Shown: in pieces, positions 1,650-62,525 of the stretch | Layout: each line of letters opens with the position of its first letter | Position numbering within the stretch: the first letter of the stretch is position 1 | IMG/VR virus record: IMGVR_UViG_3300005264_000001 | Span: 1-64,000 of that record | Strand: one strand, 5' to 3' | DNA: 64,000 bases | Source: a virus | Notes under the pieces: generated by a model | What the model was told of the DNA's origin: nothing | Databases searched by the model: none | Seen by the model: only the letters and a program-made list of their open reading frames with translations | Program-made: the position numbers and the translations under genes

Positions 1650-3656
1650 ATGGATAAAGAAAAAATAAAGAAAAGAGTTGAAAAATTCAAAACTAAAGCA
1701 AGTGTTCGTAAGGAAATTAATAATTTATACGATGATTTATACTCTAACACAATGATGTTAACTGATGAGGATAAAAGTGAAATTAATTATGAAATATCTT
1801 TATTAGAAAAGAGACTTATCAAGATTAAAGGTAGTAAAACTACAGGTATTTCTCAAATTAAAAAAGAAGTAGAAAACAAAGAAGTAGAATTTAATGAAGA
1901 AGCTAAACAAATATTAGATAACTTTGATAAAATTGATTATTCTATTGGATTAGAAATAAAAGAGTTGAGAGAATGTCCTTTACATGACTTCTTACGACAA
2001 AATAAATTGTATCAACACTTTTATTCATTATTTAGAATTAGATTCAGAGGAAATTATACATGGATTGCTCCATTATTCATACTGTTTATTCAATCATATT
2101 CTACAAGTGTAGGAAAGTTTAAGATGAATGATACAGATGAATACTCAAAAAGAATTAATATCTATGGTTACAAAGCATCAGGTGGAGGAAAAACAGCATT
2201 ATGTAAATTTGTTGTTAATCTATTGGAATTTTTAGATGTTCCAGCTATCTCAACTGTAAATCCAGGAACTGAAGCAAATTTGAGAGGTACTGTAATGACA
2301 TCAAATGATAATGTTACAGTTACAGCTGGAGCAATGGGTTGCTCACTTGTTGCATTTGAAGAATTAAAGACAATTCTAGCAGCTGTATCAAAAGATGATA
2401 AGTTACAAGGTTTCCTACTAGGATTATTAGAAAATACTTGGGTTGATTCAGGAACAGCCTCAGCAAACTCATTAGTAGCAAGATATAGAGAACAATGTGA
2501 AGATGAGAAAAAAGAAAAAATATCTGAACAAGTTGAACAGGTTGAACAATTAGAAACAAAGTCACTTACTACTCTTGATGATGGTATGAATTTACCTGAT
2601 GTTGAGATAAAGAAGAAACCAAAATATAATGGTAGACCAAAAGATAAAATAAAATTAGAGTTAGAAACTGACACGTATAAAGTGTCAACTTATAAAGGAG
2701 AAGTAACTGCTCAAAGTAAAATGTTTTTTAAAAACAATGCTAATTGTATTATTATGAGTCAACCAATCTTTGCTTCTTCTAGTAGATTAGAAAGAGAAAT
2801 GCAACAAAAGTTTATGTGGGAAACAGGAGCTCAATATAGAGGAATTTTCTTACATGATGTTGATAGAGTTACAAAAGAAAAAGAAACTGAGTATAAAATT
2901 CAAAGAACAACTTTCATTAATCAACTTAAAAATATATTTGATGTAGAAACAGGAAAAGATGCTGCAAAAATACTTCGTGAGAAAATGAAAACATTACTTG
3001 AAGAATTACCAGAGATGCCAATGTATATTAAATATGATGAAGTTATCGATGCTATGTCAAGTAATTTTGATAAGTGGTCTCCAACTTGGAAAACTATAAC
3101 TGACGATTTGTCAACAGCTGTTGAAAATGGTGTTGATAGTGGTGAAATTAAATATATGACATCTTACAAACAACGTACTGAATTTGTAAATATCCCAGTT
3201 ATGACTGATATCTTAGCATACATAAAAGGTGTTACATCTCCAGATTCTGAAATGTGGAAAGTAGCAACAATGTATTGTGCAAAAACTTTACAAAGTTTTA
3301 AAGATTATCTAGCAAATACAGGTGAATCAACTGTATTCTCAAAAGAGGCCCAAATGAAGAACTATTCACCAATCATACTTAAAACATTAACTAGTTTAAT
3401 AAATAAAAGTAGAAGAAACAATAAAGATATTGTGGATGAATATTATCATTACCCAAGTTTGACATTGTTTAATAAAAAAGCAGAAACGGAAATTAAATTA
3501 AAAGTTAGTGATAAATTTGATAAAGGATTATATACAAAAACTATAAATACTTTAATTGAAGCAGAGAAGATTGACGTTACGAATACAAATCCATCAAATG
3601 GAGATAAATTTAGACATAACACAAAAAAGGTAATATACAAAGGAGTATTAAAATGA
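1650..3656 (+). CDS. divergent MCM-like AAA+ ATPase, putative replicative helicase
   Basis: Walker A GYKASGGGKT. TEANLRGTV...TAGAMGCSLVAFEEL resembles MCM SAAGLTAAV...EAGALVLAD.GVCCIDE. Sensor-1-like IIMSQP. Confidence 0.65.
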   Translation: MDKEKIKKRVEKFKTKASVRKEINNLYDDLYSNTMMLTDEDKSEINYEISLLEKRLIKIKGSKTTGISQIKKEVENKEVEFNEEAKQILDNFDKIDYSIGLEIKELRECPLHDFLRQNKLYQHFYSLFRIRFRGNYTWIAPLFILFIQSYSTSVGKFKMNDTDEYSKRINIYGYKASGGGKTALCKFVVNLLEFLDVPAISTVNPGTEANLRGTVMTSNDNVTVTAGAMGCSLVAFEELKTILAAVSKDDKLQGFLLGLLENTWVDSGTASANSLVARYREQCEDEKKEKISEQVEQVEQLETKSLTTLDDGMNLPDVEIKKKPKYNGRPKDKIKLELETDTYKVSTYKGEVTAQSKMFFKNNANCIIMSQPIFASSSRLEREMQQKFMWETGAQYRGIFLHDVDRVTKEKETEYKIQRTTFINQLKNIFDVETGKDAAKILREKMKTLLEELPEMPMYIKYDEVIDAMSSNFDKWSPTWKTITDDLSTAVENGVDSGEIKYMTSYKQRTEFVNIPVMTDILAYIKGVTSPDSEMWKVATMYCAKTLQSFKDYLANTGESTVFSKEAQMKNYSPIILKTLTSLINKSRRNNKDIVDEYYHYPSLTLFNKKAETEIKLKVSDKFDKGLYTKTINTLIEAEKIDVTNTNPSNGDKFRHNTKKVIYKGVLK

Positions 3657-3838
3657 AAACAAAAGAACAAGTAAGAAAGGATAACGTGAGTAATGCATCA
3701 AAGTATCAAAAGAAGAAAAACGATACTTTCAACGCTTTACCAAAAGAAGAGAAAACAGAGATAATGAACAATTATGCTCTAGAGATGTTACAAAATATGA
3801 GAGAAGGTAACATAGAAACACCTGAGAGGAGAATTTAG
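3653..3838 (+). CDS. hypothetical protein
   Basis: Start overlaps the upstream stop (ATGA). Confidence 0.6.
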   Translation: MKTKEQVRKDNVSNASKYQKKKNDTFNALPKEEKTEIMNNYALEMLQNMREGNIETPERRI

Positions 3839-3839
3839 A

Positions 3840-4571
3840 ATGAAATTACAAGTTGTTACAAAAGAAGAAAAACCTAGATTAGATAATAACGATGAATTAA
3901 TATGTCATAAGTGTGCTAATTGGCCTGATATGGCTGAGGACCATAATTTAGATAAAAAAGATGGAAGAATGTTTAGAGATAAAATGTTTCATAATATATT
4001 GGAAATGAAAGGCTCTTATGAAGAGGATTACTTATCATCACAAGACTTTTTTAGAACTATAGAGATACCAGAACACAGAAAAATTAAATTAAGTGGTGAA
4101 CGTGGGTGTGTATTATGTAATATTGATTTAGTTGAACCTGTATTTCACTATGCACTAATTAAATCATTATGTGATAATAAAACGGCTCAATATTATTTAT
4201 TTAGTAAAGGTGTATTTGTAAAATCATGGTATATAGAAGAACACTTAAAACACATAAAGGTTGTTGAGAATGAGGAAATTATGAAAGTTAAAACACCAAT
4301 TCAAATTGTAAATACAAGAATAGCTGATATTGAATACAGATTGAGAGAGTTAAAAGATACAGGAGATTCATTTAGTATTGACAAAGCAGAAACTTCCTTA
4401 ACTAAATATATTGCTATAAAAGCAACATTAGAAGCTGATATGCCAAAAGATACAAACAAAGGAACATCATATAGTAAAATGTTTGAGAAGATACAAGCCA
4501 AAAGATTACAAATCGAAGAATCAAAATCGAATATTGAAGAATCGAATATTGAAGAATCGAAAGATTTATAA
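3840..4571 (+). CDS. hypothetical protein with two CxxC pairs and a C-terminal coiled coil
   Basis: CHKC and CVLC; in the operon. Confidence 0.7.
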   Translation: MKLQVVTKEEKPRLDNNDELICHKCANWPDMAEDHNLDKKDGRMFRDKMFHNILEMKGSYEEDYLSSQDFFRTIEIPEHRKIKLSGERGCVLCNIDLVEPVFHYALIKSLCDNKTAQYYLFSKGVFVKSWYIEEHLKHIKVVENEEIMKVKTPIQIVNTRIADIEYRLRELKDTGDSFSIDKAETSLTKYIAIKATLEADMPKDTNKGTSYSKMFEKIQAKRLQIEESKSNIEESNIEESKDL

Positions 4572-4594
4572 ATAGATAATCATTCTTATATATT

Positions 4595-4725
4595 AGAGGT
4601 AGAGATACTTCTGGATAGATAACACATTGAGATTATTTTTATATAAGCTTATTTGTTTTCTCATACGATTTTTACACACTTGATAAATTCTTAGTGTGTT
4701 ATCGAGGATTGAAATATCCTCAAAA
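4595..4725 (+). ncRNA. candidate structured small RNA
   Basis: TATA at 4565-4572 with no ATG at the expected position. 5' GAGA-loop hairpin 4595-4612, 15-bp stem 4618-4632/4689-4703 with two G-U pairs, 3' hairpin 4704-4721. Confidence 0.55.
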
Positions 4726-4748
4726 ATTCTAACAAATTTTAATTCTAA

Positions 4749-4786
4749 ATACAAAGACTTATAAACAATAGAACATTAATAATATT
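4749..4786 (+). promoter_or_regulatory. early-type archaeal BRE/TATA promoter (AAAGACTTATAAA), leaderless
   Basis: TTATAAA ends 21 nt before the ATG. The same spacing occurs before ATGs at 7695, 12102, 17530, 19282, 20948, 24488, 24750, 33802, 35732, 36793, 43204, 54958(-) and 55533(-). Confidence 0.85.
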
Positions 4787-4924
4787 ATGGTAAGAGAAAT
4801 CATAAAAAATAAGTTAACATACACTTTAGAAAGTGGGTACGTAATAAAAGTAGATAGAGGGAACATAGTTCTAGGTAAAGACATCAAAGAAGTCATAAAA
4901 GTCTTAAAGAGGTTAGAAGAATAA
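4787..4924 (+). CDS. small hypothetical protein (45 aa, MVREII...)
   Basis: Leaderless ATG at canonical spacing; below the ORF track size cutoff. Confidence 0.65.
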   Translation: MVREIIKNKLTYTLESGYVIKVDRGNIVLGKDIKEVIKVLKRLEE

Positions 4925-4925
4925 A

Positions 4926-5132
4926 ATGGGAGTAATGGGATGTAATAGAAAAGGTTGTAATAATGTCATGTGTGATAAATATTCAACAACTTTTGGATAT
5001 ATTTGTTATGAATGTTACTATGAAGGAATTGGACAAGATTTATCTGTATTGGAATTTATGAAAACAGATAAAAACACTTTTAAACAAACAAGAGAAACAG
5101 AATTTGAACACTATTTTGTAGAGGGAAACTAA
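4926..5132 (+). CDS. small Cys-rich protein
   Basis: CNRKGC...C...CYEC; TAAAATG coupling. Confidence 0.65.
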   Translation: MGVMGCNRKGCNNVMCDKYSTTFGYICYECYYEGIGQDLSVLEFMKTDKNTFKQTRETEFEHYFVEGN

Positions 5133-5375
5133 ATGGAAGGTAAAAGAGAAACTGTGAAAATGACTAAGAAAAGATTTCTTAGAGAAGTAGAGAAGAATAA
5201 AGAAGGTAAGTTTATTAAAGCAGTTTGTTTTTATTGGTATACAATTAAATATAATGATGTACTAGTAAAGAAATTATTTAAACCTGTTTATGAAACATTT
5301 GATGAGTTCAAAGAACGTGCAAAACAAGAGTTAATTAAATTTAAGAATTATAAAGAGGAATATTTAAATGAATAA
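5133..5375 (+). CDS. hypothetical protein
   Basis: Abutting ORF. Confidence 0.6.
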   Translation: MEGKRETVKMTKKRFLREVEKNKEGKFIKAVCFYWYTIKYNDVLVKKLFKPVYETFDEFKERAKQELIKFKNYKEEYLNE

Positions 5376-5580
5376 GGAAATAAAAGAAAATATGATTTAT
5401 CTATTAAAAAGATTAAATGAAGATTATGAAGGATTGTTTACATTAGATTACAATAACTATATCTTTGTATTAAAATATAATGGTCTTGAACTTGTTAAGT
5501 TTACACCTTGTGTTGCACGAGATAGAGTTTGGTGTGATAATATTTATTGGAGAATTAAAGGTGAACGAGATAGAGTTTAG
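5368..5580 (+). CDS. hypothetical protein
   Basis: Overlapping ORF in the operon. Confidence 0.55.
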   Translation: MNKEIKENMIYLLKRLNEDYEGLFTLDYNNYIFVLKYNGLELVKFTPCVARDRVWCDNIYWRIKGERDRV

Positions 5581-5779
5581 AAAAGTAGGAGATATACAAT
5601 ACGATGGTTTTAATTCAATAGATAAACTTACACCTCCTAAAGAAAAACAAACCTTACTAAAAGGTTATTACAAAGGAGAATATTATATATTTGTAAATCA
5701 TAAGTTAGTGGAGATTTCACATTTGGAATCTGATGAATTTGAAAGAGTTCATAGAATAAATAGATTAGAAAAATGTTAA
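5561..5779 (+). CDS. hypothetical protein (probable GTG start)
   Basis: 3' part of ORF 5480..5779; GTG near the upstream stop. Confidence 0.45.
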   Translation: MNEIEFRKVGDIQYDGFNSIDKLTPPKEKQTLLKGYYKGEYYIFVNHKLVEISHLESDEFERVHRINRLEKC

Positions 5780-5961
5780 AAGATAAAGCAATAGAAAAAG
5801 CAATAACAAATTCATATGGTGTAAAAACTAAGGGATTTTATTATGCAGACGTAAAGAAAGCAGTTAATAAACTAAGAGACTTATTTGATATAGATGGTGG
5901 TGGTTCTGAAGGATATACAGCAAAAAAAATTGATGAGATATTTGGAGACTTTAAAAAATGA
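5773..5961 (+). CDS. hypothetical protein
   Basis: Coupled ORF. Confidence 0.55.
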   Translation: MLKDKAIEKAITNSYGVKTKGFYYADVKKAVNKLRDLFDIDGGGSEGYTAKKIDEIFGDFKK

Positions 5962-7664
5962 AAGTATTAACAGCTGAAAAAATTAGAATTGAAATAGAAG
6001 GAGAGGTTTTCTTTTGTACATCGAATTTGAGTGTATTAGAAGTATATTGTTTCATGAAAACTAGAATTGAAGACGTGACATATTCAGACGGAATGTGGAA
6101 AGTACTTACAAATGAAGACAATATAAAGACGTTACAAGAACTTTTATCTTTTAGTATAGAATATATGAAATGGTCAGAAAAGTTTCTAGATTCACTTAAA
6201 AACAAGGATAAAAAAGAAGTAAGTGCTCGTGTGTTGTATCTAAGAAAGAAGTATCAAATGATTAGTAAGAGATTTCCCTTTTTATATGATTTTCAAAAGA
6301 AAGCAGTATTGAAAACAGCTTATAATAAACATGGTGGTCTGTTACTCGGAATGTCAATGGGTACAGGAAAAACAATTACAAGTATTGCTGCTGCTCTTTG
6401 TTTATCTGAAAATATCTTTATTGTGTCACCTGCTCCGTTAATGGAACAATGGCAAGCAGAATTATCAAAATGGTTTGATAAAGATAGTGTTATCTTTAAA
6501 GGTACAAAAGGTAAAAGAGAAAAATTGTATAAAGAGAACGAGAAATCTATAAAAATTATATCATATGATACATTTAAGAATGATAAAGATAATCTTGATT
6601 TACGTAAACAATTTAGACATAGTATATTAATTTGTGATGAAGCAACGAAACTAAAAAATAAGAAATCACAAAGATATTTAGCAATAAGTAAAAATAAGAA
6701 TTTCTTTAATTGGAAGATATTTTTGAGTGGGACACCTGTAACAAAAGCATTACGTGACATTCATACATTAATACAATTAATTAATAGGGGATTAGCTGGG
6801 TCTATAAAAGATTTTGAAATTTACGAAATGATTACAAGTGGTTGGGGATATAATCAAAAGACATTTCCAAAATTAGTAGGATATAAAGATTTAGATGTTT
6901 ATGTTAAAAGAATTAAACCTGTATATGAACGTAAGACATTGGAAGATATTGGAAAACAAATGCCTAAGAAAACTATAATAAGAGTTGATATTGAGCAAGA
7001 TAAACCACATCATAAATTAGCTGATTTGATATTAGAGGAACACACAGCATTTACAGGTTTCTCTTTATTATGTATGTTAGATAGTGGAATTACAAATATT
7101 GTAAATTCAGAATCAGAGAGTGTTCAATTAATAGAAGATGAACTACCAACTAAATATACAGAAAATAAGTTAGCTGTCTTAAAAGAACTAGTTGAAGAGA
7201 TAGACGATAAGACTTTAATATTTACACGATTTATTCAAACAACTAAAATGTTGAAAAAAGAATTACAAAAAGAATTTAAAAATAAGAAAATTGTAATTGT
7301 AGATGCATCAACACCTAATAAAGAAATGATTAAAAATCAATTCAATACAGGAGATATTGATATTGTAATAGCTACTGAAACATGGACTGAGGGTGTTAGT
7401 CTTGGTGAAGTGGATTATCTTATCAATTATGATGTCACACCATCTGTAGATAAATATTTACAGAAAAATGATAGAATCTATCGTTTAAACTCAACTAGAC
7501 CTAAGTTTATATATAATCTTGTTGGAAATGTTGTAGAACAACACATTATGGATATATTAGAGAAGAAACTTATCCTTATATCTGCTGTGACTGATGGGCA
7601 GGCAGGAATTATGTCTGATTCAGATATTAAAGAGGAAGTAATGAAAAAACTAGGAAAAAGATAG
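5958..7664 (+). CDS. SNF2-family (SF2) helicase/translocase
   Basis: LYDFQ, MGTGKT, ICDEAT, LSGTP, TEGVSL, QKNDRIYR. Confidence 0.92.
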   Translation: MKVLTAEKIRIEIEGEVFFCTSNLSVLEVYCFMKTRIEDVTYSDGMWKVLTNEDNIKTLQELLSFSIEYMKWSEKFLDSLKNKDKKEVSARVLYLRKKYQMISKRFPFLYDFQKKAVLKTAYNKHGGLLLGMSMGTGKTITSIAAALCLSENIFIVSPAPLMEQWQAELSKWFDKDSVIFKGTKGKREKLYKENEKSIKIISYDTFKNDKDNLDLRKQFRHSILICDEATKLKNKKSQRYLAISKNKNFFNWKIFLSGTPVTKALRDIHTLIQLINRGLAGSIKDFEIYEMITSGWGYNQKTFPKLVGYKDLDVYVKRIKPVYERKTLEDIGKQMPKKTIIRVDIEQDKPHHKLADLILEEHTAFTGFSLLCMLDSGITNIVNSESESVQLIEDELPTKYTENKLAVLKELVEEIDDKTLIFTRFIQTTKMLKKELQKEFKNKKIVIVDASTPNKEMIKNQFNTGDIDIVIATETWTEGVSLGEVDYLINYDVTPSVDKYLQKNDRIYRLNSTRPKFIYNLVGNVVEQHIMDILEKKLILISAVTDGQAGIMSDSDIKEEVMKKLGKR

Positions 7665-7694: not shown

Positions 7695-8639
7695 ATGAAT
7701 AATAAATCAGTAGTATGGTGGAGTGGTGGTAAAGATTCAACAGCAGTAATTTTAAAATTACTTGAACTTGGTTATAGAGATTTTAATGTCGTATTTATAG
7801 ATACTGGAATTGAATTCGATGAAATGTATACATACATAGAGAGAAGTAAGAAATATTTCTTAAAGTTTGGTATAAAAGTAAAAACATATAAGTCAAAAAA
7901 ATATACTTGGGAAAATATGTTTTATTCTATAAAACAAAAAGGAAAGAACAAAGGGGATAATTACGGTTTTCCTTATACTTGTGGTGCCTGGTGTAATGCT
8001 AGGTTGAAAGTAGACCCGATGAATGAAGCAAAAAAAGATTTTAAAGACTATATAGAAATAATAGGATATGCGATAGATGAAAAATCAAAAATAAGACAAT
8101 TAAAGATAAAAAATAAACTTAATGGGATAGATAAATTCAAAACAGTTAAATATGTTAAAGATAAAAAAACAAAAGAGATAAGAGAAGTTACATTAGAACA
8201 TGACATTTCAAATGAAAGATATTTATTAGCAGAACATAATATGAAAGAATCTGATTGTTTAGAATTATGTAAAAAACATAATCTATATAATCCATTATAT
8301 GATTTGTTTGGAAGAACTGGATGTTGGTGTTGCCCTAAACAACCATTAGCAAGTTTAAGAATCATTTATTTAAAAATGCCTGAAAAATGGAATCAACTAC
8401 GAGTGTGGCAAAAAAATAGTAAGAATTCATTTAGACCTAAAGAATCAATTTTTGATTTACAAGAACGATTTGAATCTGAGATTATCGAATCTAAGATTAA
8501 GCTTTTAAAAAAAACAGTATTAAAACATTATTTAATTTTTAAAACAACAATTTTTCATTACTCAACAATAACAATAATTCTATCATTACTCAACAATCAA
8601 CAACTTTATAAACACGTAATCATTCTTATATTATACTGA
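7695..8639 (+). CDS. PAPS-reductase-family (DndC-like) enzyme; true C-terminus may be in the -1 frame ending at 8542
   Basis: PP-loop SGGKDS, FIDTG, WCNARLK, RTGCWCCP. Confidence 0.85.
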   Translation: MNNKSVVWWSGGKDSTAVILKLLELGYRDFNVVFIDTGIEFDEMYTYIERSKKYFLKFGIKVKTYKSKKYTWENMFYSIKQKGKNKGDNYGFPYTCGAWCNARLKVDPMNEAKKDFKDYIEIIGYAIDEKSKIRQLKIKNKLNGIDKFKTVKYVKDKKTKEIREVTLEHDISNERYLLAEHNMKESDCLELCKKHNLYNPLYDLFGRTGCWCCPKQPLASLRIIYLKMPEKWNQLRVWQKNSKNSFRPKESIFDLQERFESEIIESKIKLLKKTVLKHYLIFKTTIFHYSTITIILSLLNNQQLYKHVIILILY

Positions 8640-8725
8640 CCACAGAGTCAGACTTAGTAAACTTACAAAACTTACATTTAATTATTAGAGATTATTACCT
8701 CACAATTTTTATATTTATTCTAACG
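8635..8725 (+). ncRNA. candidate small RNA
   Basis: TATA at 8605-8612 with the same TAATCATTCTTATAT spacer as the 4565 promoter. 5' hairpin CTGAC-cacaga-GTCAG; no ORF before the next promoter at 8731. Confidence 0.4.
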
Positions 8726-8793
8726 AAAACAAAAGACTTATAAAGAGTTAATCATTATTATATATTATGAGTTGAAAAACTCGAGAAAATAAA

Positions 8794-62376: not shown

Positions 62377-62412
62377 AAAATTAATATACACTAATCCTTT
62401 ATAAACTTTTGC

Positions 62413-62453
62413 AAAAATTTCTAGAAATCCCTCTCATAGGACGTGTTCAAACT
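62413..62453 (-). ncRNA. candidate small RNA resembling a solitary CRISPR repeat
   Basis: TATA at 62475-62482; predicted transcript GTTTGAACACGTCCTATGAGAGGGATTTCTAGAAAT followed by a T-tract. Confidence 0.35.
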
Positions 62454-62525
62454 GATAATAAGAATTAATTTGTATTTATAAAGTTATTGATTCAAGAAAA
62501 GAAAGACTTATAAATAGATTCTAAT

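Follow-up and report, generated by a model that had tools for sequence, protein, structure and literature searches.

In a 64,000-nt stretch of DNA from an uncultured virus (hereafter the window; positions 1 to 64,000 of IMG/VR record IMGVR_UViG_3300005264_000001), the spacer at 4572-4786 carries the marks of a small RNA unit: a promoter without an open reading frame (ORF), a hairpin at the predicted start and a 15-bp stem enclosing three U-tracts. With confidence that is evenly balanced, we read this spacer as the boundary of two transcription units that also holds a small ORF-less transcription unit, in an archaeal-type tailed virus. Judged from its sequence, the element is probably a small viral non-coding RNA unit lying on a multi-U-tract terminator. 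The sequence elements, their non-randomness and their recurrence within the genome are direct observations. To our knowledge, almost nothing is known about the non-coding RNAs of archaeal viruses, and less about those of tailed viruses of uncultured AT-rich archaea.

The viral genome and its likely host

The complete IMG/VR record is 92,961 bp long with 28% GC and a 104-bp terminal repeat, and the window is its first 64 kb; positions above 64,000 refer to the record. About 91% of the genome is coding and spacers are few. The virus is contractile-tailed (it encodes a tail sheath, baseplate J and a portal/MuF-like protein), and its replication module comprises an ATP-dependent ligase, an SNF2 helicase, a clamp loader, a weak PCNA-like clamp, a C5 methylase, a family A polymerase (PolA) and a PD-(D/E)XK nuclease. 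The nearest named PolA homologue (47% identity) is binned as Candidatus Woesearchaeota. This one homologue and the promoter grammar described below form the whole basis for regarding the host as likely, though not proven, to be archaeal. Searches of the viral genome for the TFB/TFIIB, integrase and LSM families gave no match; neither did a search for the T7-type RNA polymerase family, for which the search control was also blank.

The viral DNA originates from marine sediment, and the sequencing runs listed for the virus were three marine-sediment DNA runs from one study, with no RNA run among those listed. Contigs from the DNA runs of that source study had zero sequence variants across the element, and near the element the source assembly breaks solely at a repeated promoter.

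Two long non-coding regions lie beyond the window. The first (86576-87515; L010:8576-9515) is 940 nt of 15-22% GC between divergent genes, and has perfect 23-26-bp inverted repeats and repeated units of TTTTTAAATTTAAAAACGTAATCC (iterons). On either strand no other locus of the genome is as structured, and this region is a probable replication origin. The second (66991-67355; L009:2991-3355) is 365 nt of almost pure A/T with several U-tract clusters on the minus strand and a 23-bp perfect inverted repeat (67180-67202 with 67251-67273).

A regular promoter family

An archaeal-looking promoter motif, AAAGAYTTATAAA, occurs in about 50 copies across the genome, oriented with the genes. In most copies an ATG stands exactly 34 nt from the first base of the motif, which implies leaderless mRNAs, and in these leaderless copies the edge of the TATA box is 21-22 nt from the ATG. 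[quoted passage not shown] The viral promoter geometry agrees with this mapped archaeal layout. Because the grammar (BRE/TATA, ATG at +34) is so regular, starts can be predicted to the nucleotide. Two partial relatives, L063 and L011 (PolA 44-48% identical), have the same promoter consensus, AAAGRTTTATAAA.

One copy of the motif, AAAGACTTATAAA (4753-4789, + strand), places the ATG of the following gene (4787-4924) at +34, and by this register it appears to mark the start of the next leaderless transcription unit. That gene is also one of five unrelated genes (4787, 33802, 35732, 69711(-) and 92560) with near-identical promoters and the common start ATGGTAAGAGAAA (MVRE...), a repeat long enough that the source assembly breaks there.

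The promoter at 4560 belongs to a variant found at tRNA genes

The promoter core of the ORF-less unit, AAAGATTTATAAA (4560-4572, + strand), is composed of an A-rich BRE-like pentamer, AAAGA, and the TATA box TTTATAAA; as in archaeal promoters, the TATA box is 8 nt long and the BRE lies directly upstream of it. The core matches AAAGAYTTATAAA at 13/13 positions, and the match runs on for 35 nt, through the proximal element to T4594/A4595. The TATA promoter that the initial annotation had assigned to this RNA is thus a full member of the genome-wide BRE/TATA-like family. The proximal element, tagaTAATCATTCTTATatatt (4573-4594, + strand), is 82% A+T and contains the box ATTCTTAT at 4582-4589. The start was predicted at A4595 by register with the 48 promoter copies that have an ATG at +33 to +39, and T4594 precedes it, in line with archaeal spacing and initiator preference. 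No ORF lies behind this promoter, the core of which overlaps the last codons and TAA stop (4569-4571) of the upstream ORF (3840-4571). Just before the promoter, at 4526-4558 (+), two exact tandem copies of a 15-nt unit (AATCGAATATTGAAG) and part of a third give the 243-aa orphan protein a C-terminal repeat of the motif IEESN.

The box ATTCTTAT occurs in exact form at eight promoters, seven of them ORF-less and one driving a 75-aa ORF. Three stand before tRNA genes (77738(-), 91245 and 92051), and the others without an ORF are those at 4560, 8600, 62487(-) and 66677; where the C of ATTCTTAT is replaced by A or T, the sister promoters all drive proteins. The association between box and ORF-less units gives a crude Fisher p = 0.036, to be read as a post hoc value from eight promoters. 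If the 4560 unit is transcribed, the virus would have four or more small ORF-less units, this one among them, that are capped by a hairpin and use the same promoter variant as its tRNA genes, which would point to a dedicated "RNA gene" expression class.

The remaining ORF-less units differ in detail. At 8600-8712 (+), where the ATTCTTAT-type promoter overlaps the end of a PAPS-reductase-like gene, the layout resembles that at 4560: after a hairpin (CTGAC-cacaga-GTCAG) at +2 come a direct repeat of the ACTTA type, then GAGATTATT...TTTTTATAT and, at 8732, the next promoter. The minus-strand unit at 62410-62487, also behind a ATTCTTAT-type promoter, would give a GC-richer RNA of ~36 nt (GTTTGAAC...CTAGAAAT), similar to a CRISPR repeat and with T5 at its end. 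The fourth unit (66677-66756; L009:2677-2756, +) has a promoter nearly identical to those at 4560 and 92051 and a small hairpin followed by T5 at +40-44, and lies antisense to neighbouring minus-strand genes.

The viral tRNA genes are found at 76949-77598 (-), 91462-91533 (+) and 92168-92251 (+), with ARAGORN calling Thr, Gln and Leu tRNAs and intron-bearing Ile- and His-like ones, and Rfam giving five tRNA matches. Each tRNA group stands behind a ATTCTTAT-type promoter and a structured leader of 80-180 nt; that of tRNA-Leu contains the T-arm-like GGGTTCAAGTCTC.

RNA structure

The predicted start, A4595, is the first base of a GAGA-capped hairpin (A4595-U4612, + strand) of 7 bp, with its loop at 4602-4605 and one G-U pair (G4598-U4609), just as the initial annotation had it in describing a GNRA hairpin exactly at the start. 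This position follows a rule within the genome: transcripts predicted to lack a translated ATG at their start all open with a hairpin, usually within 1-3 nt of +1. Folds of the first 30 nt averaged -4.2 kcal/mol for the 11 non-leaderless transcripts against -1.0 for 27 leaderless mRNAs (Mann-Whitney p = 3e-6). The hairpin at 4595 is the strongest of the 11 (-6.5), and two of the others also have GNRA loops. L063 and L011, both distant relatives, likewise have leadered transcripts with a hairpin at +1 to +3 (L063:14294-14360 and L011:2265-2330), for example ATGGAATTAAGATTCC with a 7-codon mini-ORF. Recurrence of the 5' hairpin within and between genomes supports the predicted start and stands in for covariation. 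Such hairpins are likely to protect the 5' end and to exclude the transcripts from leaderless initiation.

Further along, GATAACACATTGAGA (4618-4632, + strand), which is unique in the genome, can pair with TCTTAGTGTGTTATC (4689-4703, + strand) over 15 contiguous pairs, the only non-Watson-Crick ones being U4627-G4694 and G4629-U4692; both the length of this stem and its two G-U deviations were as first described. The 3' arm would pair only in transcripts that read through the U-tracts. Directly stacked on the long stem is a 6-bp 3' hairpin, GAGGAT-tgaaat-ATCCTC (4704-4721, + strand), present as annotated, in single copy in the genome and followed by A5.

The RNA of the + strand (4596-4725) folds at -34.3 kcal/mol (z = -4.5, with 0/200 shuffles as good), compared with -21.6 (z = -2.8) for the minus strand of the same segment. 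Among 12,378 sliding 130-nt windows of the genome (both strands, GC-corrected), the element ranks 22nd, or about 7th when distinct loci are counted. We also looked for stems of 15 bp or more that close a loop no longer than 100 nt and include three or more G-C pairs and no more than two G-U pairs. There were none in 12 locally shuffled genomes and six on the real + strand: four in the AT-rich non-coding region near 87.2 kb, one divergent-promoter palindrome and the stem at 4618-4703, which is therefore far beyond chance. All three non-Watson-Crick pairs of the 5' hairpin and the long stem are G-U on the + strand. By our own estimate, which is not a computed value, this would have p ~0.02-0.04 if the mismatches were unselected. 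The G-U pairs favour the + strand, as the initial annotation had suggested for those of the stem, and the + strand is also the one with the deeper fold.

These features bear on whether the element is simply debris, that is, one dispersed promoter copy that lost its ORF, its transcripts being stopped by the boundary terminator and its inverted repeat being the neutral remnant of an inverted duplication at the locus. Near-identical promoter cassettes are indeed numerous and scattered over the genome, and a search of 5.8 billion proteins turned up no homologue of the upstream 243-aa gene, which makes the region evolutionarily young. Yet few spacers persist in a ~91%-coding genome, there is no second copy of an arm that could have been the source of a duplication, the 5' hairpin at +1 obeys the rule of its class, and every deviation in the stem is a G-U pair on the transcribed strand. 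We consider this origin improbable.

The inverted repeat could also act in DNA, its 15-bp arms being regulator or initiator sites that flank an easily melted T-rich stretch, as in a transcription-activated origin or an operator pair. T7 and T4 have promoter-dependent phage origins, and the element recalls them in its position between two promoters of the replication module; the repeat itself is real. On the other side, the arms occur nowhere else in the genome, their centres are 71 bp (~6.8 helical turns) apart, the spacer at ~23% GC (by eye) is little below the 28% of the genome, and for an origin the region at 86.6-87.5 kb is a far better candidate. A DNA-level role of this kind is very unlikely, and an attachment site is unlikely given that no integrase match was found.

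The 3' handle of CRISPR repeats is ATTGAAAG/C, and the initial annotation had likened part of the 3' hairpin, GGATTGAAA, to it, with a Cas decoy among the proposed functions. The comparison finds no support: the likeness is limited to this 9-mer, which occurs five times in the genome, lies inside the hairpin loop and reads ATTGAAAT as an octamer instead of ATTGAAAG/C. A mimic of the host repeat handle, serving as an RNA anti-CRISPR or Cas decoy, would have some precedent in viruses that encode solitary-repeat RNAs with their own promoters (PMC10651486), and another ORF-less unit of this virus, 62410-62487(-), is more repeat-like. The 4560 unit itself contains no repeat-like unit of 28-37 nt, and the hairpin in question lies beyond the three U-tracts. 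Even for the 62.4-kb unit, an 18-mer searched in 185,579 species genomes gave seven single, non-arrayed matches and no array, so that there is no known host array for comparison. CRISPR mimicry at 4560 is extremely unlikely.

U-tracts, termination and transcript length

The loop of the long stem (4633-4688, + strand) is a U-rich segment of 56 nt, close to the ~55 nt first reported, and contains U5 at 4636-4640, U4 at 4656-4659 and U5 at 4669-4673. The three tracts span 38 nt and fall at +42-46, +62-65 and +75-79 from A4595. They have the form of an archaeal termination signal, with at least two tracts of U4 or longer within ~30 nt downstream of a transcription unit (4636-4673). In M. maripaludis, an AT-rich archaeon, two or more U4-tracts give efficient aCPSF1-dependent termination, also of non-coding RNAs (PMC8716108). 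Clusters of three T4+ tracts on the transcribed strand are rare, numbering eight in 84.6 kb of coding sequence and five in spacers behind same-strand genes; among the four other spacer clusters, one is found near 26.2 kb, where the long block of + strand genes ends, and one behind the tRNA operon. Against a strong reading of the tracts, T5 is present within genes as well, at 1.4 per kb of sense strand. The first T5 of the other ORF-less units is at +40-44 (66677), +37-41 (62487(-)) and +72-76 (8600). A module, GAGATTATT...TTTTTATAT, is common to 4633-4688 and the 8600 unit, and that 9-mer is found only five times in the genome.

On this pattern, 4633-4688 is predicted to be a multi-U-tract terminator both of the upstream operon and of the RNA that would start at 4595. 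No bacterial intrinsic terminator (a GC-rich hairpin followed by a U-run) was found in 3500-6000. Beyond the 3' hairpin (~4725) there is likewise no terminator-like signal, the hairpin being adjoined by A5 and no U-tract. The ~130-nt length originally proposed finds no support in this analysis, given three U-tracts inside the loop and no sequence-defined 3' end. Because the U-tracts, an archaeal terminator signature, lie within the "loop", the main products are more likely to be 45-80 nt long, and the ~130-nt stem-closed form, which requires read-through, would be a minor isoform at best. With its 3' arm past the predicted terminators, the stem, the most striking feature of the element, is left unexplained by a short-RNA model.

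This arrangement lends itself to a purely cis-acting reading, in which the U-tracts end the upstream operon, the promoter at 4560 is an additional, perhaps early, promoter serving the downstream cluster through regulated read-through (an attenuator), and the stems are UTR structures (stabilising the 3' end of the upstream mRNA and giving the downstream mRNA a long 5' leader) with no function in trans. The U-tract cluster is at a plausible operon end, the 81-nt form has alternative pairings, and the tandem layout of gene end, ORF-less promoter, U-tract and next promoter recurs at 8600/8732 and at 62487/62410(-). A 21-nt stretch of the loop can also pair with the start of ORF 4787 (76% complementarity), but this is no better than chance. 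Moreover, the downstream gene has a perfect leaderless promoter of its own, and the promoter variant at 4560 is the one used for tRNA genes. We regard punctuation in cis as unlikely overall, while giving it real weight; if the element is an operon boundary only, it is still a clean example of a viral multi-U-tract archaeal terminator.

Coding potential, known families and relatives

The non-coding character claimed for the element holds, as the spacer 4572-4786 contains no ATG and no credible ORF. A 53-aa frame on the minus strand was rejected as a gene (TTG start, no promoter, and a translation like that of random AT-rich DNA).

The initial annotation had suggested a check against Rfam, which returned no family for the element: no match reached the gathering score in the window, and none was found at E <= 10 in 4300-5000. 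ARAGORN gave no match in the window, and 4595-4725 contains neither a TGATGA nor a CTGA box. A blastn search against 50,697 phage records returned only an irrelevant 96-nt match, and the 243-aa protein upstream (ORF 3840-4571) matched only itself in the protein search described above. Relatives of the helicase and of PolA were found, and the loci L011, L063 and L076 share the replication module and end short of the 4560 region; the record of L011 (G001) gave no match when searched for the helicase. Exact-pattern scans of viral contigs for both stem arms and the 5' hairpin found no match, and a single-sequence covariance model run on the viral genome itself and on 277 kb of related DNA from 18 loci recovered only the element and no paralogue.

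A role as antisense guide on viral mRNAs, also among the functions first proposed, finds no support, since complementarity is at the level of shuffled controls. The element has 76 antisense words of at least 10 nt in the virus (74.5 +/- 15 in shuffled controls), the longest being 13 nt, and the best duplex between the loop and the 48 predicted mRNA 5' ends is -15.5 kcal/mol (-15.8 +/- 2.1 in shuffled controls).

Proposed mechanism and function

A BRE/TATA promoter, a predicted start at a hairpin, the lack of an ORF and the G-U pairs of the + strand together make a promoter-driven, structured, ORF-less transcript a reasonable proposal; transcription of the 4560 unit, the ends of its RNA and its function are inferred. 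Host RNA polymerase with TBP/TFB would use the BRE/TATA promoter at 4560-4594 and start at A4595. This promoter is the ATTCTTAT variant that otherwise appears to drive the viral tRNA genes and three other ORF-less units, the 75-aa ORF being the one exception. The RNA would open with the 7-bp GAGA-capped hairpin, which probably protects the 5' end and marks the transcript against leaderless translation. About 25 single-stranded nucleotides would follow and then the three U-tracts, which may also serve as the terminator of the upstream operon, with main products of ~45-80 nt. In the fraction reading through, the 15-bp stem could form with the U-tracts inside it and the 3' hairpin would follow, giving the ~130-nt form, and some read-through transcripts may extend into the next gene.

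As to function, our best guess is that the unit yields a small and stable non-coding RNA that is co-expressed with the viral tRNAs and acts in trans, its U-rich single-stranded part serving as the working surface. A bolder proposal concerns the read-through form. U-tracts are a classic ligand of Sm-like proteins, and a stem-held loop of U-tracts is the minimal ligand described for aCPSF1/FttA, hence the idea of a viral decoy: the 15-bp stem would expose the three U-tracts, and the RNA would titrate aCPSF1/FttA or Sm-like proteins in the course of infection, loosening termination or RNA decay on long viral operons, and the units at 4560, 8600, 62487 and 66677 would form a tool kit of hairpin-capped short RNAs that reprogrammes host RNA metabolism. 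We offer this as a long shot; the Lsm sponge named in the initial annotation found no support.

Comparison with known systems

The species 1 and 2 RNAs of phage T4 are small, stable RNAs encoded within a tRNA cluster, whose transcript is processed in the bacterial host to release them. The 4560 unit would resemble them as a structured RNA of ~100-140 nt of a contractile-tailed virus that has expression signals in common with the viral tRNAs; it differs in having its own promoter and in lying 72 kb from the nearest viral tRNA gene.

Small RNAs from archaeal intergenic regions, driven by BRE/TATA promoters and ended at U-tracts, have been mapped in M. maripaludis (PMC8716108) and Haloferax volcanii (PMC4983044). 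RNAs of this kind are thus already known in archaea, and here one is probably encoded by a virus. Like those chromosomal small RNAs, the 4560 unit lacks an ORF, shows the BRE/TATA geometry, is predicted to start at a purine that follows a T, and has U-tracts as its putative stop signal. Unlike them, it is virus-encoded, has no sequence or Rfam family in common with them, and has an unusual 15-bp stem that brackets the U-tracts.

Like the Racr RNA anti-CRISPRs (PMC10651486), which are solitary repeat units of phages, the unit would encode a small non-coding RNA in a virus and has a promoter of its own. In contrast to Racr, mimicry of a host repeat is not seen, the likeness being limited to a 9-mer. 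Finally, the segment resembles aCPSF1/FttA-dependent terminators (PMC8716108, PMC7515710) in that three tracts of U4-U5 are packed into 38 nt of the transcribed strand behind an operon. It departs from the multi-U-tract terminators of those two studies in having a strong promoter 40 nt upstream and a 15-bp inverted repeat enclosing the tracts, neither of which is described there.
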